Part shown: positions 1,487 to 34,821 of the stretch, one piece after another | How positions within the stretch are numbered: position 1 is the first letter of the stretch | How the letters are laid out: every line of letters starts with the position of its first letter | NCBI GenBank assembly: GCA_965204495.1 | Contig: OZ241989.1 | Coordinates: forward strand, 2,342,605-2,406,604 | Origin: Candidatus Hopanoidivoransaceae bacterium | GTDB taxonomy: Bacteria > Actinomycetota > Acidimicrobiia > Acidimicrobiales > Hopanoidiivorantaceae | Direction: 5' to 3' | Length of the DNA: 64,000 bases | The notes under the pieces: generated by a model | Told to the model about the DNA's origin: nothing | Database searches by the model: none | What the model saw: the letters and a program-made list of their open reading frames with translations, nothing else | Position numbers and translations under genes: made by a program

Positions 1487-6361
<4,875 letters not shown>

Positions 6362-7700: not shown

Positions 7701-7708
7701 TGCCAGCA

Positions 7709-8770
7709 ATGAAGATCGCCGAACCCAAGACCACCCCCCCCCGCTGTTCAGCTGACACCAGCGCAGCCGCAACCGCTCACGCAACCTCAGCCCCAGCCGC
7801 CTCCGCCCCCGCCGGCAAGACCGAACTCGGCTTCACGCTTCAGACGCTCATCGTCATGGCAGTCTTCACGCTCGCAGCCGTAGGAGTCGGCTTAGGCCTG
7901 CTAGCCGTCAACAGCGCATCCAGCAGCAGCTTTGAAGAAGCAGGCCAAACAGGAGTAGAAGCACGCTGCGCGCCCAACGAAATCTGGGACCCAGAACTTG
8001 AAAGCCGAGGCATAGGCGGCCCCGACAGCCAAGGCGGAATAAGAAGCAAACAGGTCGGCTGCGAGCCCTACTGCGGAACTTGGGAATACCTCTCAACAGG
8101 CACAAACGAAAACGGCGAATACGAACCAGCAGAATCCCCAGCATCCGCCAGACAATCAAGCATCGGCGGGCCAGAAGGCAACGGCGGTGTCTACAGCCAA
8201 AACATCGGCTGCTTCGCTCCCTGCTACTGGGAAATCTCTTACCCCACCGGGGTGTGGCGTCCTGCACCAGGAAATGTAAAGGGGACAACAAGTCTCCTGC
8301 GCTACTTTGACGACAACCGCGCTCCAGTGGCGGATCAACTCCGCTTGGGCGTCAACTACAGAAGATCCGCAGACTTGAGCGTTCCCATAGGCGACAATCC
8401 GGGCAACCTCCAGAAAAACAACGATCTGCAGCTTCAGCATGCAGTGCGAAACAAGGACGGCAAGCCTTACATTCTCACAAGACGGGATAACCTTCGGCGA
8501 TTCGGATCCAGGTATGTTACCGGCACACTTCCGCTGACCCCTGAACAGCTTGCTCTCGGACTTCCCACAGTTTTCACACCCAACTGGAGATCCATGGGAG
8601 ACGACCCCGGCGACACCGCCCGCAACGGCACCACCTGGGAAGACGAGAACTGGGAAATACGAGCCGACCCATACGAAAAGGAATGCACGATAGTCAACAT
8701 TAACCCGAGCCCCGGCTACCCCGAACTAGTCTGCTCCTCCGAATGGGACAACTGCGAACCCCGCCCCTAA
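7709..8770 (+). CDS. Cys-rich secreted protein with prepilin-like N-terminus, paralog 2
   Basis: The ORF track starts at GTG 7643. I prefer ATG 7709 because of the SD. The protein begins MKIAEPKTTPPRCSAD, has an Ala/Ser/Pro-rich ~40-aa leader, then ELG-FTLQTLIVMAVFTLAAVGVGLGLLAV (like prepilin G|FTLIE but with Thr at +5), then a Cys-rich ectodomain ending VCSSEWDNCEPRP. Confidence 0.75.
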   Translation: MKIAEPKTTPPRCSADTSAAATAHATSAPAASAPAGKTELGFTLQTLIVMAVFTLAAVGVGLGLLAVNSASSSSFEEAGQTGVEARCAPNEIWDPELESRGIGGPDSQGGIRSKQVGCEPYCGTWEYLSTGTNENGEYEPAESPASARQSSIGGPEGNGGVYSQNIGCFAPCYWEISYPTGVWRPAPGNVKGTTSLLRYFDDNRAPVADQLRLGVNYRRSADLSVPIGDNPGNLQKNNDLQLQHAVRNKDGKPYILTRRDNLRRFGSRYVTGTLPLTPEQLALGLPTVFTPNWRSMGDDPGDTARNGTTWEDENWEIRADPYEKECTIVNINPSPGYPELVCSSEWDNCEPRP

Positions 8771-8933: not shown

Positions 8934-9019
8934 GAAAAAATTCTATAATAAATGATGCAATATGATGGATGTCGTGTATAATGCAACTATTGCAGCTTTA
9001 TATAGAGAGCACGAGGAGA
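8934..9019 (+). promoter_or_regulatory. Conserved upstream block of pilin-like paralog 3
   Basis: Same block as 7613-7700. TATAAT occurs at 8944-8949 and 8977-8982. The SD GAGGAGA is at 9013-9019, ahead of ATG 9028. Confidence 0.4.
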
Positions 9020-9027
9020 CCGCCGCA

Positions 9028-10074
9028 ATGAAGATCGCCGAACCCAAGACCACCCCCCGCTGTTCAGCTGACGCCAGCGCAGCCGCAACCGCTCACGCAA
9101 CCTCAGCCCCTGCCGCCTCCGCCCCCGCCGGCAAGAGCGAAGTCGGCTTCACGCTTCAGACACTCATAGTAATGGCGGTATTCGTGCTCGCAGCCGTAGG
9201 AGTCGGAATAGGCCTGCTAGCCGTAAACAGCGCCACCAGCGACGACTTTGAAGAAGCAGGTCAAACAGGAGTAGAAGCACGCTGCGCGCCCAACGAAATC
9301 TGGGATCCAGAACTTGAAAGCCGAGGCATCGGCGGCCCCGACAGCCAAGGCGGTGTACGAAGCAAGCAGGTCGGCTGCGAGCCCTACTGCGGAACTTGGG
9401 AATTCCTATCAACAGGCACAAACGAAAACGGCGAATACGAACCAGCAGAATCCCCAGCCGCAGCCAGACAATCAAGCATCGGCGGCCCAGAAGGCAACGG
9501 CGGAGTGTTCAGCCAAAACATCGGCTGCTTCGCTCCCTGCTACTGGTCATACACTAACGGTGTAGGGCGGCCTACAGCAACTAATGGAGTTATAGCGAAT
9601 ACTACTAGCTTGCAATATCACGACGACAACCGCGCTCCTGCAGTAAAGCAAGTACGCTTGGGAGTCAACTACAAGAGGACCTCTTCCACTCATGTTAGAT
9701 GGCAGAGTGATATACAAATCGACAACATTTACAACAATCTAGACGTTGGTAAGCCCTTCATCATAGCCCGCAACGGTCGTGGAAGTGGTGTAGCACCGGG
9801 AACTCCACTTACTCCTGCATTAATAGCAGAACTGGCTCCTGCATTCCCGGGAGGAATAGTTCCCACAGTTTTTAAACCCAACTGGAGAACTAACAACCGA
9901 GATGCACGAAATCCAGTTACTGACCCTGGAGGCACTGCCCGCAACGGCAACGACTGGGAAGACAACAACTGGGAATACAGAGCCGACCCATACAACAAGG
10001 TATGCACGATAGTAAACATAACCCTTGACGATCAAGTCGTCTGCTCCTCCGAAGACGGCAGCTGCGACCCCTAA
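9028..10074 (+). CDS. Cys-rich secreted protein with prepilin-like N-terminus, paralog 3
   Basis: The ORF track starts at 8962; the SD supports ATG 9028. The N-terminal ~180 aa are almost identical to paralog 2. The middle region is divergent. The C-terminal motif EDNNWEYRADPYNKVCTIVNI...VCSSEDGSCDP is conserved. Confidence 0.75.
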   Translation: MKIAEPKTTPRCSADASAAATAHATSAPAASAPAGKSEVGFTLQTLIVMAVFVLAAVGVGIGLLAVNSATSDDFEEAGQTGVEARCAPNEIWDPELESRGIGGPDSQGGVRSKQVGCEPYCGTWEFLSTGTNENGEYEPAESPAAARQSSIGGPEGNGGVFSQNIGCFAPCYWSYTNGVGRPTATNGVIANTTSLQYHDDNRAPAVKQVRLGVNYKRTSSTHVRWQSDIQIDNIYNNLDVGKPFIIARNGRGSGVAPGTPLTPALIAELAPAFPGGIVPTVFKPNWRTNNRDARNPVTDPGGTARNGNDWEDNNWEYRADPYNKVCTIVNITLDDQVVCSSEDGSCDP

Positions 10075-10178: not shown

Positions 10179-10405
10179 CCTCATCAGAGCGGCTAGCAGC
10201 AGGCGGGCCGGGCGCAATGGTGCGGAAATGCGGCAAGGGCTGCGTCTGACATCACCCTTCACCCCCTGCCGAAGCAGCAGCAACCGCTAGCAGTGCCAGC
10301 ACTCGCAGTCGCAGCGAGGAGGCGGGATGCCGGCATTCACATGTCTGAGTAGAAACGAGACGCTTTCGGATGGGGTCTGAAGCTCACCGCAACATGATGT
10401 CCGAT
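10179..10405. repeat. Composite junction: trkH 3' fragment, pilin-gene 5' (TM-coding)-like fragment, and a copy of the AlbA_2 gene 3' end
   Basis: 10179-10213 (ctcatcagagcggctagcagcaggcgggccgggcg) is trkH-like. 10287-10405 (ctagcagtgccagcactcgcag...ggatgccggcattcacatgtctgagtagaaacgagacgctttcggatggggtctgaagctcaccgcaacatgatgtccgat) matches 16317-16435, which is the stop region of the intact AlbA_2 gene. Confidence 0.8.
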
Positions 10406-10533
10406 TTAGCCTGTGCTTGTTCCCGACAATTTTCTCTATGAGAAAAGAGACGAAGCCGATACGCTACGGGCAATGCTAGCCGAGGTACGCATTTCATGGT
10501 TTACTAATGATGCTATTCTGCTAGAGTTCCCCA

Positions 10534-11073
10534 CTAATCATGGAGAGCACGCTTGTCTTCCGCTATTGCTGAGGCAGAGACTTCTGATATAAATGCTGCG
10601 ATAACGCTGGTGAGCTTCAGCTTTGGATATGCCTCAGCAACCAGGGCATACAAGTTTTTTTCAGAAATTATGCCTGTCGTTCTTGCGAGAAATATGGCAT
10701 CTTTTTTGTCTACTTCCCGGGATGCCGCTATTTTCATCGCCAGAATGCCCCTCTCGTCTGGTGTTTCAACAATCAATTTTCGGCCTGAGAACACCCTTTG
10801 CAAATTCAAAGGTATCCCTGTCGGCAAATTGCCTGCTGCTGAATCGTTCACCCACCAATATGCCAGACCATTCCTTTTGGCAACACTAGCTACAGCTTCT
10901 TTCAAGTACGCTGGCAAAAGATCCGAAGCGACATCCACATCTTTAGTTCTTCTATCAACAGCCAAAAATGCCATAGAAGCTCCGCCGACTATCACCAACT
11001 CGGTGAAAGGGCAATCCAGCAGCTCCTTGTCCAATTCATCAAACAGAACCAGCAATCTGAGCCTATCCAGCAT
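10534..11073 (-). CDS. Nucleotidyltransferase-fold protein (candidate toxin/effector of a 2-gene module)
   Basis: 179 aa. ELVIVGGASMAFLAVDRRTKDVDVASD fits the NTase-fold hG[GS]...DxD signature. It is a clear paralog of 29794..30303, sharing YWW.ND.AAG, RRVFSGRKLIVETPDER and LAMKIAASR. Its start lies 3 nt downstream of the stop of its upstream partner. Confidence 0.65.
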   Translation of the reverse strand: MLDRLRLLVLFDELDKELLDCPFTELVIVGGASMAFLAVDRRTKDVDVASDLLPAYLKEAVASVAKRNGLAYWWVNDSAAGNLPTGIPLNLQRVFSGRKLIVETPDERGILAMKIAASREVDKKDAIFLARTTGIISEKNLYALVAEAYPKLKLTSVIAAFISEVSASAIAEDKRALHD

Positions 11074-11076
11074 TCT

Positions 11077-11598
11077 CTAACCAATCTGACGCATCTTCAG
11101 CGAAGTACGGTTAAGCAAGTCTTCTTCAAAATACACACCGTGCTTCTCGCATGGACTCGGAGCGACAGCCTTTACATGCTTGCCGAAGGGCGTAGCAACG
11201 GAGCCCCCCGAAAGTGTCGCTTCAGGCACCAGACTGACTTCAACTGCCCAATCTGGCAAGGGCAGCCCATCTCGGTCGCAAAGAGAATGAACCACAGACG
11301 CCAACGCCGCCAAAAGAAACCTGTCAGCATCATGGGGAGGCTCTCCAGCCAGCATGTCCATACGGCGATGCGGCATGTAATTCCAGTTGTCAATGAACAA
11401 CAGCAACGGGCGTGTTATCATCATCGAATCCGCCTCCACCATCTCAGCGATCATGTCACCAGCAGCAGTAAACGGCACATCCCAAGATTCCTCAGTCGCC
11501 GCTCTCAGATCGGAACTCGCCTCAGCAGCCTGCTTGAACTCCAGAACTTGGCTCTCGCCCTGCCCTGTCAGGTCATCTATCTCGGCGTTGCTGCTCAT
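11077..11598 (-). CDS. Partner of the NTase-fold protein; chimeric 5' end taken from the AlbA_2 gene
   Basis: 173 aa. The first 23 aa (MSSNAEIDDLTGQGESQVLEFKQ) and ~250 bp upstream match the AlbA_2 gene 16367..17527. The remainder (AAEASS...AAGDMIAEMVEADSMMITRPLLLFIDNWN...) is paralogous to 30278..30748. Confidence 0.65.
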   Translation of the reverse strand: MSSNAEIDDLTGQGESQVLEFKQAAEASSDLRAATEESWDVPFTAAGDMIAEMVEADSMMITRPLLLFIDNWNYMPHRRMDMLAGEPPHDADRFLLAALASVVHSLCDRDGLPLPDWAVEVSLVPEATLSGGSVATPFGKHVKAVAPSPCEKHGVYFEEDLLNRTSLKMRQIG

Positions 11599-11893
11599 AA
11601 TGCAATTTTAGCATGTTCGCCTGCTGATGCCCGCAATCTCGCCCATAAATTAGGCAGGCAATCAATCCCAATGGCAACCGGGCCTGGTAAACAGCCCCCG
11701 CCCTTGAAAACCAGCCTTGAAACCTGGAATCAGCCTCTGCCAAGCTTCGCCACGCGGGCTGCCCGCCTGCCTTATCTGCCACCACAGCCAAAGCAGCCAG
11801 CCTCTGCGAAGCTTCGCGGCTGCTGGGACGAACATCAACAGCACAGCCACTATCCCCAGTCGCCCCACCAACATCAGAGCGGCTAGCAAGAGC
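11531..11893 (-). repeat. Repeat: AlbA_2 5' end plus upstream region, which itself contains trkH stop-proximal and 3'-end fragments
   Basis: 11531-~11848 aligns with 17460-~17785 (tgcttgaactccagaacttggctctcgccctgccctgtcaggtcatctatctcggcgttgctgctcataatgcaattttagcatgt...). 11728-11752 and 11797-11893 resemble the trkH stop region and 3' end at 22085-22190. Confidence 0.8.
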
Positions 11894-11965
11894 TGTGTGG
11901 CATCTCCAAAAGCAACATAGGCAGCAGGTTGCTGTCTCTCAGAATCGGCACGGAAACAAATTGCT

Positions 11966-12442
11966 TTAGAGATACTGGAGAGCTTTCTTTCTCTGATCCC
12001 GCACGAACCGCATCGTTTCGGCTGGCGTTTCCACCATTGAAGGGTCTTCAGAAAACGGGCGAAAAGACTCAGGCAGATCGGCGCGCCTTTGCGGCAAGTC
12101 CATCACCGCCCACCTTATGTAGCCTTCGTGGGCTTCTCTGAGGTGCTTCATCCCAATCCCAGCCCAGTCCGCTATCTGCTGCATCTCGCTCCAGCAGACA
12201 GCCTGCTCGCTGCCTTCGAGAATGTCTCGGACAGCGCAACAAAAACTCCTTCCGTCCGCCAAGACAGGCATATCTTCGCTATCTATGCTGGCGCAGTCGC
12301 CGCATTTCGAATGCCTGGATGCCTCTAGCTCGGACATCAGCTTCAACCGCAGAGTTTCCTGCCAGCGCATACGCTCCAACAACGACATCTCATCAGGCCG
12401 TGTTTTCATCATGTCTCCCAGCATATCCCACACATGCAGCAT
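11966..12442 (-). CDS. Hypothetical protein (158 aa)
   Basis: An uninterrupted ORF in the dominant island orientation. I recognise no motif. Flanked by junction repeats. Confidence 0.45.
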   Translation of the reverse strand: MLHVWDMLGDMMKTRPDEMSLLERMRWQETLRLKLMSELEASRHSKCGDCASIDSEDMPVLADGRSFCCAVRDILEGSEQAVCWSEMQQIADWAGIGMKHLREAHEGYIRWAVMDLPQRRADLPESFRPFSEDPSMVETPAETMRFVRDQRKKALQYL

Positions 12443-12660
12443 TCGCCGACATCTGCAATATCAGACCAGCGACCTCACGCTTCAAGCCCTCATAGCCACA
12501 GCAGTCCTGGTGCTTGATGCCAAGTTCGGCGGGCCGGCAGGTTTTTACACGGACTCTGAAAATGTGAAGCTCTACAAACGGCAAAGCGAGCGGCTTGTCG
12601 CTGCCTGAAGAAAACATCGGCGATATCTGATGAACGCTGCGTTCAGATTATCTGAAATGT

Positions 12661-12969
12661 TTACTTCACCCATGCAACCTTGGTGAACTTGAGTCCGCTG
12701 ACTGCCTTGTCATGGGCGGCGTCTAGTTCGTCGAACTTGATCGTCACCCAGCGTTCTATATCTTTGGCGAATCTTTCGTCGCCTTCTTCGTCTACCTGGA
12801 CATTGATGAACCTTTCGCCCCTTTTGTCTGTTCCCCATTCCACCCGATACAAGGATGAGCCACGCCGTTCTATGTGCATATGGCGGGTGCTTTTCCCTGG
12901 CGGATGGCGCCTCTCTTTTATGACATATCCCCGAAGTCCGCGCGGGAGGGTATCGCAAACGCAAGGCAT
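12661..12969 (-). CDS. DUF4160-like small protein
   Basis: 102 aa. RRHPPGKSTRHMHIERRG and ERWVTIKFDELDAAHDKA resemble, from memory, the DUF4160 signature (..H.PHIHV.., ..AWI.I..DEL). It lies downstream of a DUF2442 gene, as in the 15.2-16.1 kb pair. Confidence 0.55.
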   Translation of the reverse strand: MPCVCDTLPRGLRGYVIKERRHPPGKSTRHMHIERRGSSLYRVEWGTDKRGERFINVQVDEEGDERFAKDIERWVTIKFDELDAAHDKAVSGLKFTKVAWVK

Positions 12970-12981
12970 CGTCAGATGCTG

Positions 12982-13287
12982 CTACGCAGGAACGGAAACC
13001 GTCTCAAAAGCCGAACGCCACTGCTCGTATGGCATTTCTACAAGCTCCTCGGCGCAGAGAACGGGTGAGATGTGGCTGTCTTCTCCCCAGCAGGCCATCC
13101 CGGCATCTACTTTCCATCGGTTGAACCCTTCGGTGTCCCATTTGTCGCAGGGATGCCCCGTCCAGTCGGACATGTCTACCACGCCCGAGCGTCCGTCTTT
13201 CATCCACACATACAACTGCCTGCCCGTGGGCGCGGCCTCCACCGCTTTCACAGAGGGCAATTTAACTCGTGTTATAGTCGTTTTCAT
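12982..13287 (-). CDS. DUF2442 family protein
   Basis: The ORF track extends to 13545 across a trkH fragment. I start at ATG 13287 (MKTTITRVKLPSVKAVEAAPTGRQLYVWMKDGRSGVVDMSDW...FNRWKVDAGMACWGEDSHISPVLC), which looks like a typical DUF2442 fold sequence. Confidence 0.65.
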   Translation of the reverse strand: MKTTITRVKLPSVKAVEAAPTGRQLYVWMKDGRSGVVDMSDWTGHPCDKWDTEGFNRWKVDAGMACWGEDSHISPVLCAEELVEMPYEQWRSAFETVSVPA

Positions 13288-13738
13288 GCTTCCACTATAG
13301 CAGAAACCGACAGGCTCGGCATCTCCTGCTCTGAAAAAAATACTTGACAGCATCTGAGACGGCGAACGAGCATTTGCCGCCTTCAGCCTCTGCGAAGCTT
13401 CGCGGCTGCTGGGACGAACATCAACAGCACAGCCTCTGTTTCCAGTCGGCCCACCAGCATCAGGGCGGCTAGCAGCAGTCGGGTAGATCGCCGGCTGAAC
13501 GCCCGTGCTGAAGTCATGGAATTCGTCCCTCAACTCCTTTGTCACAACCTGCCAGTTAGCGTTGCTATTCGTATCTGTTCCTTATGATAACAAATCCTTC
13601 ACACTCTTCTCGCAGAGTGGCTGCGTATTTGCCAGCCTGTCTGTCGTTCAAATATCTGGGTATGTAGGCAACAATATGACCTTAGTAGTTTTCGTTATCT
13701 GGTTCATCTGGAAGACACAAACCTGAGTTATCTTCATG

Positions 13739-14281
13739 TCAAGCAGCTTCGGCGAAAAACATTTCTATCTTTGCAGCTATATCTTGCCACGCATTTTTGC
13801 TGCCATCAGATATAGAAAGCCCTCCCTCCTCGTGTCTGTCATCGTCCAGATAATAGCCAACCCAAGAAGCCGCTTTTTTCGCCGGGCATACTTCAAGCCT
13901 GAAAGTTTTACGCGCTCCGCTCCACTCTGCAGCAAACCCGCCGTTCTCCTCCTGATCCAAGCACACGGACACACCGCCGAGTCGACAGGTTACGCCAAGC
14001 AGCCTCAATCCGCCTGTCCGCACAAACCATCCCATGTCAGAGTCGGACACCGGGGTGTAATATCTCCGCGGATCTGGGCTGCCCAGACTTTCCAGCGCGA
14101 CAAGCGTAGGCTTCGGCAAGGCAAAGATTTCGTAGCCCTCGCCCTCTCTGAGAGTATTTTTTGAGGAATCTATAACTGTCATCGGAAACGCTTTCTCCCT
14201 TGCGACCACTTGCTCCCCATTATACAGGATGCTTGTCACTTCTGCCGCACTTCGCAAAACACCAGAAAATGCCGCTCCCAA
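13739..14281 (-). CDS. Hypothetical protein (180 aa)
   Basis: A long ORF in the island orientation. No motif recognised. A pilin-gene 5' fragment (14293-14350) lies just upstream. Confidence 0.45.
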   Translation of the reverse strand: MGAAFSGVLRSAAEVTSILYNGEQVVAREKAFPMTVIDSSKNTLREGEGYEIFALPKPTLVALESLGSPDPRRYYTPVSDSDMGWFVRTGGLRLLGVTCRLGGVSVCLDQEENGGFAAEWSGARKTFRLEVCPAKKAASWVGYYLDDDRHEEGGLSISDGSKNAWQDIAAKIEMFFAEAA

Positions 14282-14321
14282 TGCGAAGACGAGGTTGGCT
14301 TCACACTGTTGGCTTCACACT

Positions 14322-14837
14322 TCAGACACTCATAGCCGCAGAAGCCGCCATGTCTCTCGCTCTGGCTTTCGCTTCTGATACCAACTCCATCATCTCTTCC
14401 ATCTTCTCGTACGCACCCTGCGCCAGCCGACCAGCGAGCTCTTTGTCTCCAGCATCCTCCGCAGCGTCTTCTGCAGCATTCAGATCGCACATGGACTTAC
14501 TGGCGGCCGCTATGTCATCCGATGCGTCCAGCAAGCACGCCTCACTGAGGTAATCCAGATACGCCTGCTTAGCGTCTTCTCCGCTGACACGAATCTCGTA
14601 GTGCGCCAGAGTGTCGCAGAAATGCCGCCACGACAGCGGGGCATCCACCGTAGGGTTCAAAATCTTGTGCGCCGAACAGCAATAGTGAGGCTCCGGTCGG
14701 CCGTTGTCGCAGCCTGAGGCATTGCTTCCGCAAGCCAAAACCGCAGGGGCTTGCCTAGCTAGCCTCTCACGGATGTCATCCGACACACCAAAAGGAGCGA
14801 CCATCGTCCGCGATGTCATACTGGCAGTATAACTCAA
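14322..14837 (-). CDS. Hypothetical protein (171 aa, Cys-rich N-half, acidic helical C-half)
   Basis: ORF whose last codons (...AASAAMSV*) are supplied by the antisense of a pilin-gene 5' fragment (ggcttcacacttcagacactcat). No motif recognised. Confidence 0.45.
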   Translation of the reverse strand: MSYTASMTSRTMVAPFGVSDDIRERLARQAPAVLACGSNASGCDNGRPEPHYCCSAHKILNPTVDAPLSWRHFCDTLAHYEIRVSGEDAKQAYLDYLSEACLLDASDDIAAASKSMCDLNAAEDAAEDAGDKELAGRLAQGAYEKMEEMMELVSEAKARARDMAASAAMSV

Positions 14838-14868
14838 ACCTGATTGAAAGCGGCATCACATACTATTC

Positions 14869-15178
14869 GCAGCCGAGGTCGCCTTCACCCTTCAGACCCT
14901 CATAGCCCTAGCAGTGCCAGCACTCCCAGCCGCAGCGAGGATGCGGGATGCCGGCATTCACATTTCTGTGTAGAAACGAGACGCTTTCGGATGGGGTCTG
15001 AAGGTCACCGCAACATGATGTTTACACGGACCCTGAAATGTGAAGCTCTACAAACGGCAAGGCGAGCGGCTTGTCGCTGCCTGAGGAAAACATCGCCGAT
15101 ATCTACGGCCCGTTCTCCATGTCGGCTGAACAGGAGGCGGGCCGGGCGGCTAAACTCCAAAAAATCGGCGTTGGTTCC
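14869..15178. repeat. Composite junction without cargo: pilin 5' fragment, AlbA_2 3' end copy, left arm of the 930-bp repeat, and a trkH fragment
   Basis: 14869-14935 is gcagccgaggtcgccttcacccttcagaccctcatagcc (the GFTLQTLI-coding type). 14908-15020 is an AlbA_2 3' copy. 15021-15104 matches 12544-12628 and 19911-19995. 15132-15178 (aggaggcgggccgggcggctaaactccaaaaaatcggcgttggttcc) is like trkH 22180-22226. Confidence 0.8.
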
Positions 15179-15234
15179 TGCGTCTGACATCACCCTTCGC
15201 CCCCTGCTGAAGCAGCACCGACTAGCAGCCTCAG

Positions 15235-15564
15235 CTACTTTTTCCTTTTTCTTCTGCGAAGCCGTTTTTGCTTAGCAGGCATAGGCGGACTTGGATTTTC
15301 GCCATGCGGAGGAATTCCAGTTATTTCCCTCCAGCGAACAAGAATTTCTTCTTTGTTTCTATATCCCCAAGCCTGAATATGGTTGTGCAACTGCTCATTA
15401 GTGCGTCCCTTGCGGTGTTTCAGCGTCTGAATGCTGTATTCACAGATTTCGCGATTGTGCTCCCACACATGGAAATGAGCAGTGCCGTGATCTATTCTGT
15501 TGATGTAAAACCTATATTCTCGCCATTCGTATATCAATACTTTGCCACCCTCATCAGACCGCAT
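15235..15564 (-). CDS. DUF4160 family protein
   Basis: 109 aa. YRFYINRIDHGTAHFHVWEHNRE and HIQAWGYRNKEEILVRWRE match my memory of the DUF4160 signature (H..PHIHV; AWI..H..EL...W). It overlaps the upstream DUF2442 gene by 11 nt. Confidence 0.75.
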   Translation of the reverse strand: MRSDEGGKVLIYEWREYRFYINRIDHGTAHFHVWEHNREICEYSIQTLKHRKGRTNEQLHNHIQAWGYRNKEEILVRWREITGIPPHGENPSPPMPAKQKRLRRRKRKK

Positions 15565-16132
15565 GTCTCCGCCCTATCAGAAACGATTTCACTTTTTCAG
15601 ATGACAGCTCAATGACATCACGCCAGATGATGTCGCCCCAAGGAGCTACTTTAGTAACTCCGTCTGACACCTTGCCGAAATCTTCAGCAGGGAACTCTCT
15701 GCCTGTCTTCATGTCCTCTGTCGGACGGAAATTCCCCTTTGTGCCGTCAGGATATTCCACATAAAGCTCGCCCTCCGGCTTGTCGGCGACAAGCGAGGGT
15801 GCATCTACTGCCTCTTCAGGCGGATACAGATCCTTCAAGGGAACGCCAGTTATTTCACAATACAGCAGGTCGGCACAGACGCTTACCTCCCAATCGCCCC
15901 ACATCACCGTTCCGCCCTGTACACGGACACCTCGGAAATAACGGCGCGAACGCCATTTTTCAAAACCCTTGAGGCCTCTCAGATGCGACAAGTTAACGAT
16001 GCCTTCTGTTCCGTCTGTAAACCGCACAGCGATAGACCACCGCCCCGCAACGGAAACGGCATCCACTACCGGAACATACATCTCGTCTGTCGTTGTCACG
16101 CTGAATAGCTTAGCAGCAATTTCGCCTTGCAT
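15554..16132 (-). CDS. Tandem DUF2442-domain protein
   Basis: The ORF track starts at 16279, inside a pilin-leader remnant. I start at M50 (ATG 16132). VVDAVSVAGRWSIAVRFTDGTEGIVNLSHLRGLKGFEKW...VRVQGGTVMWGDWEVSVCADLLYCEITG is DUF2442-like. The second half (ELYVEYPDGTKGNF...APWGDIIWRD) is similar. Confidence 0.65.
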   Translation of the reverse strand: MQGEIAAKLFSVTTTDEMYVPVVDAVSVAGRWSIAVRFTDGTEGIVNLSHLRGLKGFEKWRSRRYFRGVRVQGGTVMWGDWEVSVCADLLYCEITGVPLKDLYPPEEAVDAPSLVADKPEGELYVEYPDGTKGNFRPTEDMKTGREFPAEDFGKVSDGVTKVAPWGDIIWRDVIELSSEKVKSFLIGRRHAV

Positions 16133-16224
16133 CACTTTGCAGCAAAGAAATACTGCCTCCGTCTCAGGACTGCGCCACCCGCTCCTGAAAGCACCAGACT
16201 GACTCCATCTACCCAGTCTGGCAA

Positions 16225-16330
16225 GAGTGCCCCCCCCCCGCTTAGCTGACAGCAGCGCAGAAGCCGCTCGCAATTCCAAGAGTGATGTCGGCTTTTCCCT
16301 TCAGGCCTTAACAGCCCTAGCAGTGTCAGC
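16225..16330 (+). pseudogene. 5' remnant of a pilin-like paralog (poly-C tract, leader, start of TM) fused to the AlbA_2 downstream region
   Basis: gtgCCCCCCCCCCgcttagctgacagcagcgcagaagccgctcgc...gatgtcggcttttcccttcaggccttaacagccctagcagtg parallels accCCCCCCCCCgctgttcagctgacaccagcgcagccgcaaccgctcac...gaactcggcttcacgcttcagacgctcatcgtc of paralog 2. Confidence 0.6.
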
Positions 16331-16366
16331 ACTCGCAGCCGCAGCGAGGAGGCAGGATGCCGGCAT

Positions 16367-17527
16367 TCACATGTCTGAGTAGAAACGAGACGCTTTCGGA
16401 TGGGGTCTGAAGGTCACCGCAACATGATGTCCGATGTCGACTATCTCAGGCGGCGGAGTGCCATGCGCTTCGCATTCCTCTCTCATCCGAGTTATCCCTG
16501 TGCCTGCTTTTTCCATCAAGTCGCCCCGCTGCATCAGATCGGCTAGCAGTTCGTTCCTCCGGACGCAAACACGAGCTATGTTCTCTTCGTTGACGCCTAA
16601 AGGGAAACCGCCTGGGCTTTTCACGCAAAGCCTGTCGCTGTGAAGTTCGAAGAACACATTCGCACCGCGCAAATTCCAGTCTCTGTGCACAACGGCGTTC
16701 ACCAAAGCTTCTCTCACGGCGTTCAAGGGATATTCAGGGATGTTCTCGCGGCGAGGCTTCCCTGTCATCACATAGGCAGTGTTCATGTGCCGCTCAAAAA
16801 GCTCCATAACGGCGTCAAACAGCAAAGACGCTGGCATCGCAAAATCTTCCCGCTTCACGATTCGGGTTCCGCTTGATCCGTTGAACAGCAGATATGTGAT
16901 CTGGCAGTGAGGTACGAATCTGCTAGGTTCCTCCGCGAACATCAGCACAGCGGCATTCCGCAACAAAAGACCGCTGCTGTGCTCCTCGGCTGCTGACAAT
17001 TTCGGCAGCAACTCCTCAGGCGGCATCTTAGCGGAAGCTGCCCCCAGCGAACTACGCCATGTCTCATAAGCACCGCTATTCATATCATCGGGGAAACCGA
17101 ATTCCCGACAAATTTTAGAATCAAAAGACGAGGGATTATAAACCGAGTTCATCTCCCTGACCTCTTTCTTCGACATTCTCACATTTTGCGTGCCTCTGCG
17201 AATGAAAAAGCCCCATTTGCACACAACAGGCTTCTCCGAACTTTCTTCCACCTCAGCCAGCAGACACCCTCCCAGCCTTTTCACATTCAGATGCACTGGA
17301 GGATCACAGGATCTGCTGTGCCCCTCAACTTTGGCCACAGTTCTGTTGTCGGTGTTCACACCAACAACGCTCCCGTCATCAGCGACACCAAGCACTATCG
17401 TGCCGCCCGATGCGTTGGCCATCCCGCATATGGATTTGGCCAAGTCTTTCGGGATAGACTGCTTGAACTCCAGAACTTGGCTCTCGCCCTGCCCTGTCAG
17501 GTCATCTATCTCGGCGTTGCTGCTCAT
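16367..17527 (-). CDS. AlbA_2 (Schlafen-like) domain protein with C-terminal ATPase-like/wHTH region
   Basis: 386 aa. GESQVLEFKQSIPKDLAKSICGMANASGGTIVLGVADDGSVVGV is the AlbA_2 signature as I remember it. The C-terminal part (REALVNAVVHRDW...GTGITRMREECE) is typical of the RecG-like/ATP-dependent DNA helicase-annotated regulators. Confidence 0.75.
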   Translation of the reverse strand: MSSNAEIDDLTGQGESQVLEFKQSIPKDLAKSICGMANASGGTIVLGVADDGSVVGVNTDNRTVAKVEGHSRSCDPPVHLNVKRLGGCLLAEVEESSEKPVVCKWGFFIRRGTQNVRMSKKEVREMNSVYNPSSFDSKICREFGFPDDMNSGAYETWRSSLGAASAKMPPEELLPKLSAAEEHSSGLLLRNAAVLMFAEEPSRFVPHCQITYLLFNGSSGTRIVKREDFAMPASLLFDAVMELFERHMNTAYVMTGKPRRENIPEYPLNAVREALVNAVVHRDWNLRGANVFFELHSDRLCVKSPGGFPLGVNEENIARVCVRRNELLADLMQRGDLMEKAGTGITRMREECEAHGTPPPEIVDIGHHVAVTFRPHPKASRFYSDM

Positions 17528-17785
17528 AATGCAATTTTAGCATGTCCGCCCGCTGATGCCCGCAATCTCGCCCATAAATTAGGCAGGCAATCCAATCCCA
17601 ATAGCAACTGGGCCTGGTAAACAGCCCCCCCCCCCTTGAAAACCAGCCTTGAAACCTGCAATCAGCCTCTGCGAAGCTTCGCCGCGCAGACTGCCCTCCT
17701 TCCTTTATCCGCCGCCACAGCCAAAGCAGCCAGTCAACCCCAGCGAAGCTTCGCCACGACAGGTGCAAACATCAACAGCACAGCA
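17460..17785 (-). repeat. Second copy of the AlbA_2 5'/upstream repeat (here attached to the intact gene)
   Basis: Aligns with 11531-~11848. It contains a C11 tract (17625-17635) and trkH stop-proximal-like sequence (17660-17683, aatcagcctctgcgaagcttcgcc) preceded by ttgaaaaccagccttgaaacc, which resembles the true trkH downstream spacer at 22060-22088. Confidence 0.8.
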
Positions 17786-18010
17786 CGACTTCTCCGTTGC
17801 CCTCAACCGCGGCTGCTACAACAGCCTTGCCCGTAAAGCACACATAAACCCAGCCCACCAACGCCTAGAACACCCATGGCAAAAACCGCCATGAGCCTAC
17901 AGCACGAGGAATTCGCAACATCATCTCAGCCTTCATATATAATTCCCTAAAATACGACTTGCTCACTCAGCAATTCCAACCGACTGCACAAGAAACGGAT
18001 ATCCCCGTCT

Positions 18011-18499
18011 ATGAAAACCGTTGAATCCCGCATTGACGATTTCCTCTCAGACACCGAGGGGCGACCCCTGCGTGTAGCCGTAGGCTATACGAGCGTCTGG
18101 GGCATAGCTTGGCTAGCACGCCGCACACAAGGCAGGCGGGTTGATTTGCTGATAGGAAACTGCAGCCCGCTCTACTTTAAAAATGCCACAGCTGAAGACA
18201 GACAGATGGCCTCGAAATTCCTAGATCGCAGCGATGTGCAGGTGAAGAACTGGTACAAGAGACGCGGAGGGGCAAAAGATATGAATGCTAAGGTCTGGAT
18301 ATCTAGAGACTCACATGACAGACGGAGATTGCTTTCAGGTTCAGCTAATTTGACTCGCAAAGGTTTGCGTGAGAATATTGAAGCGATAGGCGAGTATCGC
18401 GGAGAAGACCTGCAAAGGACAAGGCAGAACATCAACGAGATTTGCGACGACAAAGCTTGGGACGCAAAAGACAGACTGCGTGAGTATATAAATCGTTAG
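18011..18499 (+). CDS. Single-domain PLD/Nuc-like protein with a variant HKD motif
   Basis: 162 aa. DMNAKVWISRDSHDRRRLLSGSANLTRKGL resembles HxK(x)4D(x)6GSxN but has Asn where the catalytic His is expected. This is the only plus-strand gene in the island. TATATAAT lies ~70 nt upstream. Confidence 0.55.
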   Translation: MKTVESRIDDFLSDTEGRPLRVAVGYTSVWGIAWLARRTQGRRVDLLIGNCSPLYFKNATAEDRQMASKFLDRSDVQVKNWYKRRGGAKDMNAKVWISRDSHDRRRLLSGSANLTRKGLRENIEAIGEYRGEDLQRTRQNINEICDDKAWDAKDRLREYINR

Positions 18500-18821
18500 C
18501 CCGTGCTTGCTCCCGATGATGTTGCCTATGAGAAAAGAGACACCACTTTCGCTCTGCCACGCTCGCTAAGGTATGCGCCCCCTAGGAAAAACGACTGTCT
18601 GCCCACAGCAGCTTTCATCATGGGCAACCCAGTCTGCGCCACCCGACCCTAGTTGCTAGAAGGCAGATGCGTGCAAATGGGAAATTTTGGCAGTCAGACA
18701 TTGCGGCCGAAGCGATCCCTTATTTTGCGAATTCCGTCTATGGTTCCTCTGTAAACTCCTTCTTCAAGCCCAGATATAATTTGTGGCACTACGCTATTGG
18801 CGATTATTTGCTTATGTCTCT

Positions 18822-19451
18822 CTAGTTCGTCCTCCCTGCGGTAAGAGTTTCGTCTGCGATGGCGGCGAGAGCGGCTACTGCTCTTTCTCGTTTCACCGAC
18901 GGGAACATCTTCACGAAATCGTCCACGGTCTCCCCCGACATCAAGGATGTCAGCAAAGACGAAACGAATACTCTACTGCACGGGAACGAAGGCGCGCCAT
19001 GCAAAATACGCGGGTTTCTCTGAATCGCCGGCTCAACGACAACAGACGAGGGCTTGACTGGGCCAGGCGAAAGAGACGGGAACTCCCACGGTATTGCAGC
19101 TGTCTCAGCTGGAAGCTCCAATTCTTCCCCGAACAAACTCATAACGCTGTTCAAAGATTGAACAGACAACTCGCACGCCAACATATCAGACGGAATGCAC
19201 TCGCCGTCATTCTGCCATTTAATTCTCGGATCCGGCGAAATCAACCTAGCATCCAAAGCAGTCTCTCCGTCCCATGCAAATTCACAGCACAGAGGAAAGA
19301 ACAACTCTCTTTCCGTATCTAGGATCGCCGAGTGATCCGTCACTGCGCATTTCACAAGCCCCTGAGCTTTTGAACTAGCCTCGCTCGGCAAAAAATATCC
19401 CGAATCTAGCCAGAGCTTCAGACATGGTTTCCCCCACCCAAGACCCGACAC
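18822..19451 (-). CDS. Protein with a C-terminal DUF433-like domain
   Basis: 209 aa. NPRILHGAPSFPCSRVFVSSLLTSLMSGETVDDFVKMFPSVKRERAVAALAAIAD resembles DUF433 (dP.i..G.P...GTR..v..vl..l..G.s.eei...yP.l....i.aAL). The overlapping ORF 19375..19674 may be a frameshifted 5' part. Confidence 0.5.
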   Translation of the reverse strand: MSGLGWGKPCLKLWLDSGYFLPSEASSKAQGLVKCAVTDHSAILDTERELFFPLCCEFAWDGETALDARLISPDPRIKWQNDGECIPSDMLACELSVQSLNSVMSLFGEELELPAETAAIPWEFPSLSPGPVKPSSVVVEPAIQRNPRILHGAPSFPCSRVFVSSLLTSLMSGETVDDFVKMFPSVKRERAVAALAAIADETLTAGRTN

Positions 19452-19697
19452 TCCCGTTTTGGCTCTCCAGAGGAGGCGCGACTCTGATTTCCAAAGACGA
19501 ACGAAAACCAGCCCCAGAGCTCGCGTCGCATGCGAAAGACACGCCTACCTCGCGTACCGCACCATCTTGGCAGACATGATCCGCCGTCAACTCAACGAAG
19601 CAAATACTGCTGTGCTGTCCCATGAAAATAATCATACCACAATCCCGCTTCACCCCCACAGGCACTTTCTTCAAAGTCGCTGCTGGAGGCTCTGTTG

Positions 19698-19910
19698 AAG
19701 GCTAGCGGCAGGCGGGCCGAGTGAACTCCAAGAAATCGGCGTTGGGTCCCGCGTCTGACATCACCCTTCACCCCCTGCCGAAGCAGTGGCGAAACCGCTA
19801 GCAGCGCCAGCACCCCCAGCCGCAGCGGGGAGGCAGGATGCCCGCATTCACATGTCTGAGTAGAAACGAGACGCTTTCGGATGGGCTCTGAAGGTCACCG
19901 CAACATGATG
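19698..19910. repeat. Composite junction: trkH fragment, pilin 5'-like fragment, AlbA_2 3' end copy
   Basis: 19698-19749 (gaaggctagcggcaggcgggccgagtgaactccaagaaatcggcgttgggtcc) is like trkH 22170-22226. 19798-19910 is the fourth copy of the AlbA_2 3' end block. Confidence 0.8.
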
Positions 19911-20027
19911 TTTACACTGACCCTGAAAATGTGAAGCTCTACAAACGGCAAGGCGAGCGGCTTGTCGCTGCCTGAGGAAAACATCAGCGATATCTGATGA
20001 ACGCTGCGTTCAGATTATCTGAAATGT

Positions 20028-20336
20028 TTACTTCACCCATGCAACCTTGGTGAACTTGAGTCCGCTGACTGCCTTGTCATGGGCGGCGTCTAGTTCGTCG
20101 AACTTGATCGTCACCCAGCGTTCTATATCTTTGGCGAATCTTTCGTCGCCTTCTTCGTCTACATGGACATTGATGAACCTTTCGCCCCTTTTGTCTGTTC
20201 CCCATTCCACCCGATACAAAGATGAGCCACGCCGTTCTATGTGCATATGGCGGGTGCTTTTCCCTGGCGGATGGCGCCTCTCTTTTATGACATATCCCCG
20301 AAGTCCGCGCGGGAGGGTATCGCAAACGCAAGGCAT
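20028..20336 (-). CDS. DUF4160-like small protein (duplicate of 12661..12969)
   Basis: 102 aa, one substitution (Q/H) relative to copy A. Confidence 0.55.
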   Translation of the reverse strand: MPCVCDTLPRGLRGYVIKERRHPPGKSTRHMHIERRGSSLYRVEWGTDKRGERFINVHVDEEGDERFAKDIERWVTIKFDELDAAHDKAVSGLKFTKVAWVK

Positions 20337-20348
20337 CGTCAGATGCTG

Positions 20349-20654
20349 CTACGCAGGAACGGAAACCGTCTCAAAAGCCGAACGCCACTGCTCGTATGGC
20401 ATTTCTACAAGCTCCTCGGCGCAGAGAACGGGTGAGATGTGGCTGTCTTCTCCCCAGCAGGCCATCCCGGCATCTACTTTCCATCGGTTGAACCCTTCGG
20501 TGTCCCATTTGTCGCAGGGATGCCCCGTCCAGTCGGACATGTCTACCACGCCCGAGCGTCCGTCTTTCATCCACACATACAACTGCCTGCCCGTGGGCGC
20601 GGCCTCCACCGCTTTCACAGAGGGCAATTTAACTCGTGTTATAGTCGTTTTCAT
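20349..20654 (-). CDS. DUF2442 family protein (duplicate of 12982..13287)
   Basis: Identical 101-aa product from ATG 20654. The ORF-track extension to 20894 reads through the trkH fragment. Confidence 0.65.
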   Translation of the reverse strand: MKTTITRVKLPSVKAVEAAPTGRQLYVWMKDGRSGVVDMSDWTGHPCDKWDTEGFNRWKVDAGMACWGEDSHISPVLCAEELVEMPYEQWRSAFETVSVPA

Positions 20655-20898
20655 GCTTCCACTATAGCAGAAACCGACAGGCTCGGCATCTCCTGCTCTG
20701 AAAAAAATACTTGACAGCATCTGAGACGGCGAACGAGCATTTGCCGCCTTCAGCCTCTGCGAAGCTTCGCGGCTGCTGGGACGAACATCAACAGCACAGC
20801 CTCTGTTTCCAGTCGGCCCACCAGCATCAGGGCGGCTAGCAGAAGGCGGGCCGGGCGCAATGCTGATGCCCGCAGTGTGGCGAGCGGATAACACTGGC

Positions 20899-20984
20899 GG
20901 AAAAATTTATAACAAATGCTGCAATATAGCAAGAGATGTATATAATATATCTATTGCAGCTTTATTCCGACAGCATAAGGAGAT
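20899..20984 (+). promoter_or_regulatory. Conserved upstream block of pilin-like paralog 4
   Basis: ggaaaaatttataacaaatgctgcaat...gtaTATAATat...AAGGAGA. TATAAT is at 20941-20946. The SD at 20978-20984 lies 7 nt before ATG 20992. Confidence 0.4.
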
Positions 20985-20991
20985 GTCCGCA

Positions 20992-22044
20992 ATGAAGATC
21001 GCCGAACCCAAGACCCCCCCCCACTGCTCATCTGATGCCAGCGTCGCAGCACCTGCCGTTGCCAGCACCGTTGCCGCAACCGCCCCTGCACCTGCCGCCG
21101 CAGCAGCCGCAACCCCTCCCACCAGCAAGACCGAACTCGGCTTCACCCTTCAGACGCTCATCGTCACAGCAGTGTTGGTGCTCGCAGCCACAGGAGTCAC
21201 CGTAGGTCTGCTAGCCGTCAACAGCGCATCCAGCGACGACTTTGAAGAAGCAGGCAAAACAGGGGTAGAAGCACGCTGCCCAGCCCCCAACGAAGTGCAA
21301 GACCCCGAGCTAATCGGCAGAGGCGTGGCAGGTGTCAACAAGACATTCAGAGACATCAAATCCGACAACATCGGATGCAACCCAATCTGCGCCACCTGGG
21401 AATACTACGACCCGGGCCGAGCAGCCGCAGGAATCGGCGGCCCAGAAGGCAACGGCGGCGTATTCAGCAGCAACGAAGGCTGCTTCGCCCCCTGCTACTG
21501 GCAAGCAAAGAAAGGCGCGAACACTTATCGCCCAGACCGTTCCCCCAGCGCTTATTATTTTGTGGCCAACGCAGGGTCTGCTCTGGTCTATGACGACAGC
21601 AACAGAGCACCGGGCAATGCAGAAGTGCGCTTCGGAGTCGTCTACTCAGAGACAACTGCTGCAGGCCAGCGAGATCAGATAAGAGTAAGCGGGGCTGGAA
21701 GAGAAGTAGTAATTTATCTTCCGCTTAACGACAACCAGCGAATACCCGTAGGGGCTTACACACACAAACCACTGCTTCCAACCGATGGAAGTTCTGATAG
21801 AACTACAGATCCTTATTACACCGATGGTTATCACGGCATGGGATCTCACGACATTTCTCACTTCTGGGAATGGCATGTAGATCCCAAAGAAGAGAAGTGC
21901 TATGTAATCGACACATCCTTCCCCGACAATCCCACCCGCATAGTATGCACATCAGAGCAGGATTGGTGCGTTGACTCTGGCTACTCTGGAGCTCCTAGCG
22001 ACGGCGGTCGTCCAACAGCCGGCGGCGGCAGATGGGGCTGGTAA
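20992..22044 (+). CDS. Cys-rich secreted protein with prepilin-like N-terminus, paralog 4 (most divergent)
   Basis: The ORF track starts at 20860; the SD supports ATG 20992. The protein reads MKIAEPKTPPHCSSD..., then KTELG-FTLQTLIVTAVLVLAATGV, and carries the shared CxxNE, GCNPIC.TWEY, GGPEGNGG and CFAPCYW motifs and C-terminal VCTSEQDWC. It converges on trkH with a 44-nt spacer. Confidence 0.75.
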   Translation: MKIAEPKTPPHCSSDASVAAPAVASTVAATAPAPAAAAAATPPTSKTELGFTLQTLIVTAVLVLAATGVTVGLLAVNSASSDDFEEAGKTGVEARCPAPNEVQDPELIGRGVAGVNKTFRDIKSDNIGCNPICATWEYYDPGRAAAGIGGPEGNGGVFSSNEGCFAPCYWQAKKGANTYRPDRSPSAYYFVANAGSALVYDDSNRAPGNAEVRFGVVYSETTAAGQRDQIRVSGAGREVVIYLPLNDNQRIPVGAYTHKPLLPTDGSSDRTTDPYYTDGYHGMGSHDISHFWEWHVDPKEEKCYVIDTSFPDNPTRIVCTSEQDWCVDSGYSGAPSDGGRPTAGGGRWGW

Positions 22045-31219: not shown

Positions 31220-31264
31220 TACGCGAAGAAGAGCTATTGCCTAAAGGCTTATAGCAACCAAACT

Positions 31265-34817: not shown

Positions 34818-34821
34818 ACCA

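Follow-up and report, generated by a model that had tools for sequence, protein, structure and literature searches.

Horizontal gene transfer hotspots that lack mobile genetic elements (MGEs) diversify by homologous recombination (Oliveira et al. 2017, PMC5635113), minimal mobile elements (MMEs) have been discussed for Neisseria (PMC3787668, PMC1797815), and arrays of displaced 3′ ends have been attributed to homology-facilitated illegitimate recombination (HFIR) (Kirchberger et al. 2017, PMC5361080). Here, we analyze a cassette island between gltB and trkH in a 64-kb window of an uncultured Acidimicrobiales-like actinobacterium; the window is the whole stretch of DNA analyzed, and all feature positions are window coordinates. 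The window is chromosomal and carries gltB, trkH-trkH-trkA, an H+-pyrophosphatase gene, polA, rpsA, and menaquinone-type genes. Its 10.1- to 20.9-kb interval holds about 13 small genes with composite junctions between them, 12 of the 13 on the minus strand and many of them toxin–antitoxin (TA)-like or defense-like in character, much as an initial annotation had described the region between pilin-like paralogs 3 and 4. The island is real and fast-changing, and we consider it probable that it arose by ordinary recombination between gene leftovers and by small, sloppy deletions, not by a new cassette machine. Stated more fully, our preferred reading is an island free of MGE genes that was probably shaped by nested insertion and deletion, tandem duplication, recombination between repeats made of gene termini, and exchange between co-occurring lineages. 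In its working, the island is closest to MGE-free transfer hotspots and MMEs (PMC5635113, PMC3787668) and to HFIR-type arrays of sequential displacement (PMC5361080), and it does not represent a new mechanism.

We compared the window, as a tenth haplotype, with nine related contigs (L001 and L020–L027; 58 kb to 2.0 Mb; European Nucleotide Archive analyses ERZ25070167, ERZ25068388, ERZ25068389, and ERZ25068392). All have a common layout of gltB(D), pilin-like array, cassettes, pilin-like gene, and trkH; in all loci that reach the flanks, gltB and the pilin-like array stand on one side and a pilin-like gene and trkH-trkH-trkA on the other. Between these flanks, the ten haplotypes present ten different cassette contents or orders drawn from one pool of ∼20 cargo genes, so that the replacement and reshuffling of cargo with an integron-like outcome, as the initial annotation had proposed, is borne out. 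No integrase or transposase family appeared in the Pfam tables of the nine related loci. Core genes were 93.5–96.3% identical to those of the window and cargo genes 97–100%, with the DUF6036 nucleotidyltransferase-fold pair (cassette N) reaching 99.3–99.5% in five lineages. Within collinear stretches, unique cargo and unique spacers were 98–100% identical, whereas the repeated junction blocks fell to 80–95%, and the “alleles” of trkH fragments proved to be patchworks of paralogous copies. The difference between cargo and core identity, the mosaic profiles, and the repeat-bounded insertions and deletions all point, at the level of sequence, to homologous exchange of cassettes between lineages.

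With the same flanks, different contents, no mobility genes, and exchange between lineages, the locus belongs with MGE-free hotspots and MMEs. As in these and in flexible genomic islets, variable content occupies a fixed site between core genes without integrases or transposases, and different cassettes are found at one site in related strains, with turnover attributed to housekeeping homologous recombination. Unlike in MGE-free hotspots, recombination here reaches beyond the core genes at the flanks: the island has its own internal dispersed repeats, stumps of disrupted genes that split it into separately exchangeable cassettes, and one of its flanks is itself a duplicating array of paralogs.

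Where haplotypes differ, the edges of the difference are marked by direct repeats (940 bp or 20–26 nt) or by microhomologies of 4–10 nt. The window has the arrangement of L020 with a 7,367-bp unit added between two 940-bp direct repeats, which are copies of a module (D1) with a DUF4160-like and a DUF2442-like gene; the two copies differ by nine mismatches, all at the ends, and their central 620 bp are identical. In L024, cargo gene X1 was lost between two remnants coding for the pilin-like transmembrane (TM) segment, at 14311 and 14873, with a 23-nt overlap, and a 1.9-kb block present in L021 and missing in L022 lies between two trkH-end repeats with a 24-nt overlap. Shorter matches mark other joints: GCGGCT where L023 and L024 lost the D1 module, CCTC for a 295-bp deletion, GGCTAGC for the joint of trkH to an inverted pilin-like piece, and GCCGA for two alternative left junctions of cassette N. 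Such differences, bounded by repeats or microhomologies, are signatures of homologous and of illegitimate (microhomology or homology-facilitated) recombination, and the initial annotation’s remark that no known mechanism fits is not supported. An automated three-way junction analysis of eight loci gave 44 junction clusters, 21 with an overlap of at least 4 nt and 19 with a gap of 1–20 nt. Overlaps of 14–26 nt indicate recombination between short repeats and overlaps of 1–7 nt indicate microhomology, while the gaps may reflect parents that are not in the sample.

An assembly artefact made of collapsed or chimeric repeats is scarcely conceivable as the source of this mosaic. The window does contain many short repeats and one of 940 bp whose copies are 99% identical, but these junctions recur, with breakpoints sharp to the same nucleotide and in different arrangements, in the nine related contigs of 58 kb to 2.0 Mb, which belong to four analysis accessions. 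This recurrence excludes mis-assembly, which the initial annotation had named as a danger to its claim.

We mapped the junction blocks by blastn self-comparison of 6–24.5 kb with a repeat search, by MAFFT, and by tblastn. The five recurring block classes (a–e) of the initial annotation are all real, at or a few bases from where it had placed them, with 76–99% identity over 40–940 bp; the matches are far above chance (E-values 1e-10 to 0 in the blastn self-comparison). Its block orders (a-b-c-e, a-b-c, and b-c-e-a) were correct, and its idea of junctions built from recycled gene termini was confirmed and extended, since block e and other pieces are likewise termini.

Block a comprises eight trkH 3′ fragments in addition to the real gene end at 22089–22232; the eight are in direct orientation and 74–90% identical to that end. 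Counted from the stop codon, a minus-strand fragment just upstream of paralog 2 (7528–7574; 85% identity) spans −107 to −61, and its junction to the pilin-like upstream region is the same as that at 20857/20858. The fragment at 10182–10272 (minus) consists of a −107 to −75 core and a diverged upstream part; it is 93% identical to L020:17247-17336 and L025:8191-8280, where it is followed by N and not by the AlbA_2 3′ end. The one at 11798–11892 (minus; −95 to −1) is just 85% identical to its L020 counterpart between flanks of 97–100%. Alignment to the trkH end placed further fragments in D1 copy 1 (13383–13483, minus; −100 to 0), in a b-c-e-a junction (15123–15228; −143 to about −64), in an a-b′-c junction (19700–19786; −143 to −95), and at the end of D1 copy 2 (20750–20857, minus; −107 to 0); two minus-strand pieces lie upstream of AlbA_2 (17604–17685, −23 to +61; 17722–17784, −50 to +12), the second of which is counted among the eight. 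Four of the eight fragments retain the stop codon, each followed directly by cargo in the same orientation.

The other blocks come from several genes. Remnants of the pilin-like gene (block b) include TM-coding pieces at 12470–12522 (plus), at 14311–14344 (plus) between X2 and X1, where the joint of L024 lies, and at 14873–14935, as well as a 5′ remnant with partial leader and TM segment (16257–16344, plus) that abuts the AlbA_2 3′ end. A 40-nt TM-proximal coding piece is inverted (19667–19706, minus) and joined to a trkH fragment at the common GGCTAGC. The remnant that had been proposed at 19750–19830 is there as a diverged variant, visible in the MAFFT alignment only. The AlbA_2 3′ end (block c) occurs at 10287–10405, 14908–15021, 16317–16435 (intact gene), and 19798–19911, at 94–97% identity; the first (minus) comprises the last 22 codons and 50 nt downstream and is 97% identical to 16317–16435. 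Block d (11527–11847, minus), the AlbA_2 5′ end with its upstream region, is 90% identical to 17456–17784 and contains a −20 to +62 trkH remnant at 11673–11750. The 85-bp block e has copies at 12544, 15021, and 19911 (94–97%) and corresponds in tblastn to the final ∼30 codons of a 136/170-aa gene on the plus strand, of which other haplotypes have intact copies. A fragment of the downstream flank of the PLD-like gene (10406–10478, plus) is 85% identical to 18496–18541. These pieces combine in composite junctions: pilin-like TM, AlbA_2 3′ end, block e (15021–15104), and trkH fragment at 14873–15228 (b-c-e-a), and trkH fragment, diverged pilin-like stretch, and AlbA_2 3′ end at 19700–19911 (a-b′-c), the latter 85% identical to 10191–10400. 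The junction blocks have no copies elsewhere in the 64-kb window, and we rejected a dispersed element of the type of miniature inverted-repeat transposable elements because of this absence. Exact-pattern scans with the AlbA_2 3′ block found no match in viral contigs or JGI metagenome contigs.

Read along the minus strand, the direction of cargo transcription, the array is nested. Each pilin-like gene is preceded by a trkH fragment starting at −107, which indicates tandem duplication of a unit of trkH end and pilin-like gene. The intact AlbA_2 gene lies antisense in a shell of the pilin-like gene: a pilin-like 5′ remnant abuts its 3′ end, and on its upstream side stand a remnant of the pilin-trkH intergenic spacer with ∼18 nt of the pilin-like 3′ end and then trkH ends. 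The DUF6036 pair in turn lies inside an AlbA_2 shell, N1 beginning with the AlbA_2 promoter region and first 24 codons in frame and the pair ending against an AlbA_2 3′ stump. The D1 pair comes after a trkH end that contains the stop codon, with block e and an AlbA_2 3′ stump next.

The nested anatomy, the repeat- and microhomology-bounded differences, the greater similarity of cargo than of core genes, and the absence of recombinases and structured sites are plain in the data. Our preferred reading would arrange the history in five steps. Tandem duplication of the last ∼107 nt of trkH with the pilin-like gene would have built the paralog array, leaving trkH fragments upstream of the pilin-like genes. 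Illegitimate joins would then have placed foreign or relocated genes within earlier occupants in nested fashion, and each new gene would have come to be flanked by 5′ and 3′ stumps of the gene that it disrupted; AlbA_2, antisense in its pilin-like shell, and the DUF6036 pair, capturing a promoter and 24 codons of its AlbA_2 shell, may be examples. Deletions, several at microhomologies of 4–10 nt, would have trimmed the stumps to short blocks beside the surviving genes. As dispersed direct repeats of 25–940 bp, the stumps could then have let RecA-type recombination or slippage duplicate, delete, and reorder cassettes, and homologous exchange between co-occurring lineages would have spread single cassettes. 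The order of these events, the way in which DNA passed between lineages, and the enzymes at work (RecA, end-joining, or HFIR-type joining) are our inference.

The locus is a clear natural example of a defense/TA island built and reshuffled without mobile-element machinery, seen in ten haplotypes at single-nucleotide breakpoints. It suggests nested capture of promoters and first codons, the AlbA_2 5′ end putatively driving a gene of the DUF6036 pair, and it illustrates how stumps of disrupted genes turn into repeats that mediate later gain, loss, and reordering of cassettes, as well as gene flow at the level of cassettes between lineages with ∼5% divergence. It also carries a warning for annotation: integrase-free islands can be highly dynamic, and short conserved “intergenic” blocks may be gene relics.

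Recombinases that act on gene ends offer another way to stack such units. In tRNA/tmRNA islands and tycheposons, site-specific recombinases target gene 3′ ends. As there, direct repeats of a target-gene 3′ end bound units in a tandem stack here; unlike there, we found no recombinase, constant core, or attL/attR pairing. The window contains no tRNA genes and no Rfam matches and so has no tRNA/tmRNA att site. No recombinase gene was found in the window with Pfam among open reading frames (ORFs) of at least 150 aa judged to be genes and the smaller ORFs of the array, those below 150 aa outside the array not having been scanned. A decayed stack of integrative elements at the trkH 3′ end, each bringing a replacement end and pushing the old end and its cargo outward, with the integrase since lost or acting in trans, would explain why eight trkH fragments are in direct orientation and why four carry a stop codon directly followed by co-oriented cargo. 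It would also fit fragment 5′ limits (−143, −107, and −95) that form a few classes common to the loci, the complete −143 to +1 copy that L023 retains inside its array, and fragments that are more diverged from the sampled functional trkH ends (74–90%) than those ends are from one another (88–100%), which is compatible with foreign origin. We nevertheless regard such a stack as improbable. No integrase lies within 10 kb in the ten loci, so that the integrase/att system just outside, which the initial annotation had set out as an alternative, did not turn up. Units are not bracketed by an upstream-type and a stop-proximal fragment in the manner of attL and attR, and most junction blocks (AlbA_2, pilin-like, block e, H, PLD flank) are not trkH-derived. 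With the repeats present but no common crossover core and no integrase in ten haplotypes, the locus does not qualify as a site-specific 3′-end island stack.

Breakpoint positions bear directly on this point. Homology switches within a single nucleotide, but the positions are heterogeneous: the limits of the trkH fragments (−143, −107, −100, −95, −88, −77/−75, −61, and −50) give at least eight positions over ∼90 bp with no common crossover core, and the AlbA_2 3′ copies break at q114, q119, and q157. Given this spread, the fixed recombination points of the initial annotation are not supported. Its own counter-case, breakpoints scattered at random, finds half an answer, the breakpoints being nonrandom but without a core common to them. 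In addition, where the stop codon used to be, the displaced trkH fragments have a 12-nt palindrome that is perfect (GCGAAGCTTCGC; 11804–11817, 13390–13403, 17669–17682, and 20757–20770), whereas the functional trkH end (22096–22109) and those of seven relatives have an imperfect version (e.g., GCGGAGCTTTGC). Homology does not switch at this 12-nt palindrome, a further point against a stack of integrative elements.

Displaced 3′ ends are also a feature of Rhs and contact-dependent inhibition (CDI) orphan strings and of orphan immunity arrays of the Vibrio type VI secretion system (T6SS) (PMC5361080). Like these, the locus has co-oriented displaced 3′ ends with what may be their former downstream genes, its cassettes are highly similar between strains, and homologous anchoring combined with illegitimate joining (HFIR) is the proposed mechanism. 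The stop-proximal trkH fragments are followed by D1 (twice), by AlbA_2, and by the unit of AlbA_2 5′ end and N; these fragments lie beyond a convergent pilin-like gene, however, and no function links the cargo to trkH. Unlike in the Rhs, CDI, and T6SS arrays, then, trkH is a housekeeping K+ transporter gene and not a polymorphic toxin, the cargo is not its immunity, the convergent pilin-like gene intervenes between trkH and the stack, and AlbA_2, the pilin-like gene, H, and the 136/170-aa gene also supply termini.

An integron has a gene for the tyrosine recombinase IntI beside its array, and a cluster of attC sites lacking integron-integrases (CALIN) has at least two attC sites; attC sites, located at the 3′ ends of the cassettes, are imperfect inverted repeats that fold into hairpins. 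Modules of the Xer/dif type are each bounded by 28-bp XerC-spacer-XerD sites. As in integrons and CALINs, cassettes here are small, mostly co-oriented, and TA-rich, and their order varies between strains. Unlike in integrons and CALINs, there is no intI, no attC hairpin, and no common boundary motif, the junctions being remnants of coding sequences with heterogeneous breakpoints. The initial annotation’s failure to see intI or attC-like cores is upheld, and no transposase was found either. The eight junction blocks, folded as single-stranded DNA, gave z-scores of −1.5 to +0.9 against shuffles (no attC covariance model was applied), and no inverted-repeat family exists at cassette ends, the six inverted pairs in the repeat search all lying elsewhere. 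The orientation bias (12 of 13 minus) stands beside the fact that several units are gene pairs with captured promoter or 5′ stumps. The locus is neither an integron nor a CALIN on these tests. An imperfect 11-6-11 palindrome (CAGCCTCTGCG-AAGCTT-CGCGGCTGCTG) might recall a Xer site; it is confined to trkH-derived fragments, where its orientation is always direct, and does not flank every module, so that the locus is not a set of Xer/dif modules. We rejected a Xer-like site at this trkH-end palindrome, as homology switches at its edge or outside and not in the spacer (similarity to actinobacterial dif was not compared). In the dif modules of Acinetobacter (PMC6449649), cassettes, often TA, likewise move without a recombinase of their own, but those modules lie on plasmids between 28-bp XerC/D sites whose orientation alternates, and the cassettes here are not bounded by such sites. 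For all its small, co-oriented, TA-rich cassettes and its palindrome, an integron-like or Xer/dif array with unrecognized sites is thus very unlikely and already largely refuted.

A programmed cassette system without a recombinase of its own, in which the blocks serve as selected homology adaptors or as targets of a nuclease or recombinase, analogous to attC, and would allow a population to shuffle its TA and defense cassettes at one fixed site, is also improbable. It would account for nearly all breakpoints falling in the approximately one-third of the sequence that is junction blocks, with cargo bodies spared, for X1-type cassettes bracketed by pilin-like TM remnants that split exactly there in other haplotypes, and for cargo that is 97–100% identical across lineages with cores 4–6% diverged. 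Yet cargo bodies would also be spared under purifying selection on cargo combined with neutral decay, most of the junction recurrences are copies by descent and not independent reuse, no block has a conserved structure (the z-scores above), and the blocks have no further copies in the window. GCTAGC is enriched at joints, with 16 of 29 window sites inside 7.4–21.3 kb, but these sites are largely one trkH core copied. We therefore rejected GCTAGC as a recombination signal and left it as an unexplained microhomology.

Several points nonetheless weigh against the reading by ordinary recombination that we prefer. The ends of trkH fragments cluster with other joints in a ∼90-bp trkH stretch with GCTAGC, which also occurs at the pilin-like TM, b/AlbA_2, and N joints; this clustering hints at a preferred site of breakage or pairing that the model leaves unexplained. 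Overlaps of 20–26 nt are at the lower limit for RecA-dependent recombination, and the 19 clusters with gaps show no overlap at all. Rearrangement is known here from assembled contigs alone, and the DNA inspected comprised 64 kb of this genome and at most ∼21 kb around the locus of each relative; a trans-acting recombinase may be encoded elsewhere in the genome. The clustering of joints, the recurrence of GCTAGC, and the short overlaps leave room for a decayed site-specific stack or an unrecognized targeting activity. It is conceivable, if doubtful, that the stumps are kept as portable homology adaptors, or as targets of a trans-acting nuclease or recombinase preferring the GCTAGC-containing TM-coding cores of trkH and the pilin-like genes, and that co-occurring lineages thereby run an integron-like combinatorial exchange of TA/defense cassettes with housekeeping recombination only. 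If true, this would be a distinct cassette system without its own recombinase and a recombinase-independent route to integron-like diversity.

The cargo begins with N2 (10534–11073, minus; DUF6036, Pfam PF19502, E = 4.8e-6), which is 99.3–99.5% identical in five other haplotypes, and its partner N1 (11077–11598, minus), whose first 24 codons are an in-frame fusion of the AlbA_2 5′ end (residues 1–24 against 17527–17456, 95.8% in tblastn); a paralog at 30278–30799 can be aligned to N1 only from residue 32 onward. Gene H (11966–12442, minus; a 158-aa ORF without a family match) is 97–100% identical in eight haplotypes, and its first 24 codons and promoter region recur elsewhere without the rest of the gene. 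D1 copy 1 (12544–13483, minus) is 99.0% identical to 19911–20850 and comprises block e (12544–12628), a DUF4160-like gene (12661–12969), and a DUF2442-like ORF (12982–13545); copy 2 (19911–20857, minus) has block e, a DUF4160-like gene (20028–20336), and a DUF2442-like ORF (20349–20894). The initial annotation had counted three DUF2442/DUF4160 pairs, of which D2 (15235–16279, minus; DUF4160 at 15235–15564 and DUF2442 at 15554–16279) passes or nearly passes Pfam (E = 1e-7 and 1e-4), while the duplicated D1 pair is weak, with DUF2442 reaching only E = 0.027 and DUF4160 having no Pfam match. Next to D1 copy 1 lie the last 54 codons of a 148-aa gene (13568–13729, minus; tblastn 94%) that is intact in L027 and two ORFs with no assigned family, X2 (13739–14281, minus; 180 aa) and X1 (14322–14837, minus; 171 aa). 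The intact AlbA_2/HATPase_c_4 gene (16367–17527, minus; Pfam) has an upstream region (17528–17784, minus) that holds two trkH-end pieces. The sole plus-strand cargo is a PLD-like (DrmC-like) gene (18011–18499; Pfam PLDc_2, E = 7.6e-5, below the cut-off). PADLOC scored only AlbA_2 (pAgo-associated type) and the PLD-like gene (DrmC/ZacB-like) among the cargo, for which NCBIfam returned nothing.

What had been called a DUF433 fusion is instead a gene of 270 aa (18822–19674, minus; Pfam), intact in L001, L020, and L024 and frameshifted here near 19395, beside a 142-aa partner of which the last 46 codons remain at the 295-bp deletion junction (18697–18834, minus; tblastn). The frameshift is one extra base relative to L020, either real or possibly a sequencing indel, and the partner lost its 5′ part in the deletion, with the CCTC microhomology at 18831–18834. 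The pair is degraded in the window haplotype and intact in L020, L023, and L024. A scan for promoters and terminators in 10–22.2 kb gave counts no higher than expected from shuffles. Cargo absent from the window includes a 415- to 496-aa AAA_14/DUF4143 ATPase, a 224-aa RNase_H-domain protein, and unassigned proteins of 130–184 aa; such cargo lies at L001 6656–8146, L020 15613–16287, and L025 6557–7231.

The island is bounded on the left by gltB (1487–6361, minus; glutamate synthase large subunit; Pfam GATase_2, Glu_synthase, GXGXG), a conserved flank with 94.3–94.9% identity in L020–L025. The pilin-like paralogs belong to a Cys-rich surface-protein family with a conserved GFTLQTLIV TM segment: paralog 1 at 6586–7440 (plus; from alignment), paralogs 2 and 3 at 7643–8770 and 8962–10074 (both plus; ORF and alignment), and paralog 4 at 20860–22044 (plus; from alignment), which is convergent with trkH and 92–98% identical at the orthologous position in other haplotypes. 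The conserved right flank is trkH (22089–23891, minus; Pfam TrkH, E = 4e-52), the origin of the 3′ fragments.

Type IV pilins have a class III signal peptide (G/F-T-L-I-E), match N_methyl or TIGR02532 models, and adopt the pilin fold. The label “pilin-like” rests solely on an N-terminal G-F-T-L-Q-T-L-I-V motif, which lacks Glu at +5 and is placed after a 50- to 90-aa leader, and the genes have no Pfam or NCBIfam match; judged by their sequences, the paralogs appear not to be members of the type IV pilin/prepilin family. The AlphaFold2 model of paralog 4 was unusable (mean predicted local distance difference test score of 47), and an exact look-up of this paralog returned no record. The family is narrow and found in metagenome assemblies alone, its proteins combining a long and variable leader with an invariant E-x-G-[FIY]-T-L-Q-T-L-I-V TM segment and an ectodomain rich in Cys. 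The nearest named genomes are an Acidimicrobiales metagenome-assembled genome (OY282367, L002), with six copies within one 11-kb stretch, and the sponge symbiont Ca. Hopanoidivorans cymbastelae. Both have large tandem pilin-like arrays that are unlinked to trkH and without cassettes, and we rejected them as the ancestral state of the island for this reason.

Other parts of the window also carry variable or defense-type content. A 1.7-kb insertion between the convergent H+-pyrophosphatase and Band_7 genes (29647–31346) contains a second, paralogous DUF6036 pair (29794–30799; 69% nucleotide identity to 10664–11466) and a small low-GC ORF; absent from L001 and L024 and present in L025 and L027, it marks a second cassette site without junction blocks. 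Comparison of filled and empty states at this site (29.6–31.3 kb) revealed no target duplication and no informative joint. The stretch at 34800–47600 is dense in small ORFs and defense-type genes, among them HEPN proteins (37210–37686 and 39014–39526) and a Type III-like restriction-modification pair (methylase, 39998–42583; ResIII helicase, 42573–45431), and another DUF433 protein is encoded at 46878–47558. The 47000–49000 region, with a GC content of 38–43% compared with 52–61% elsewhere and an ORF of 307 aa without a Pfam match (48048–48971), is probably recently acquired DNA. Finally, 62219–63988 encodes a 589-aa leucine-rich-repeat protein of eukaryote-like type, which fits the sponge-symbiont affinity of the nearest named relatives.

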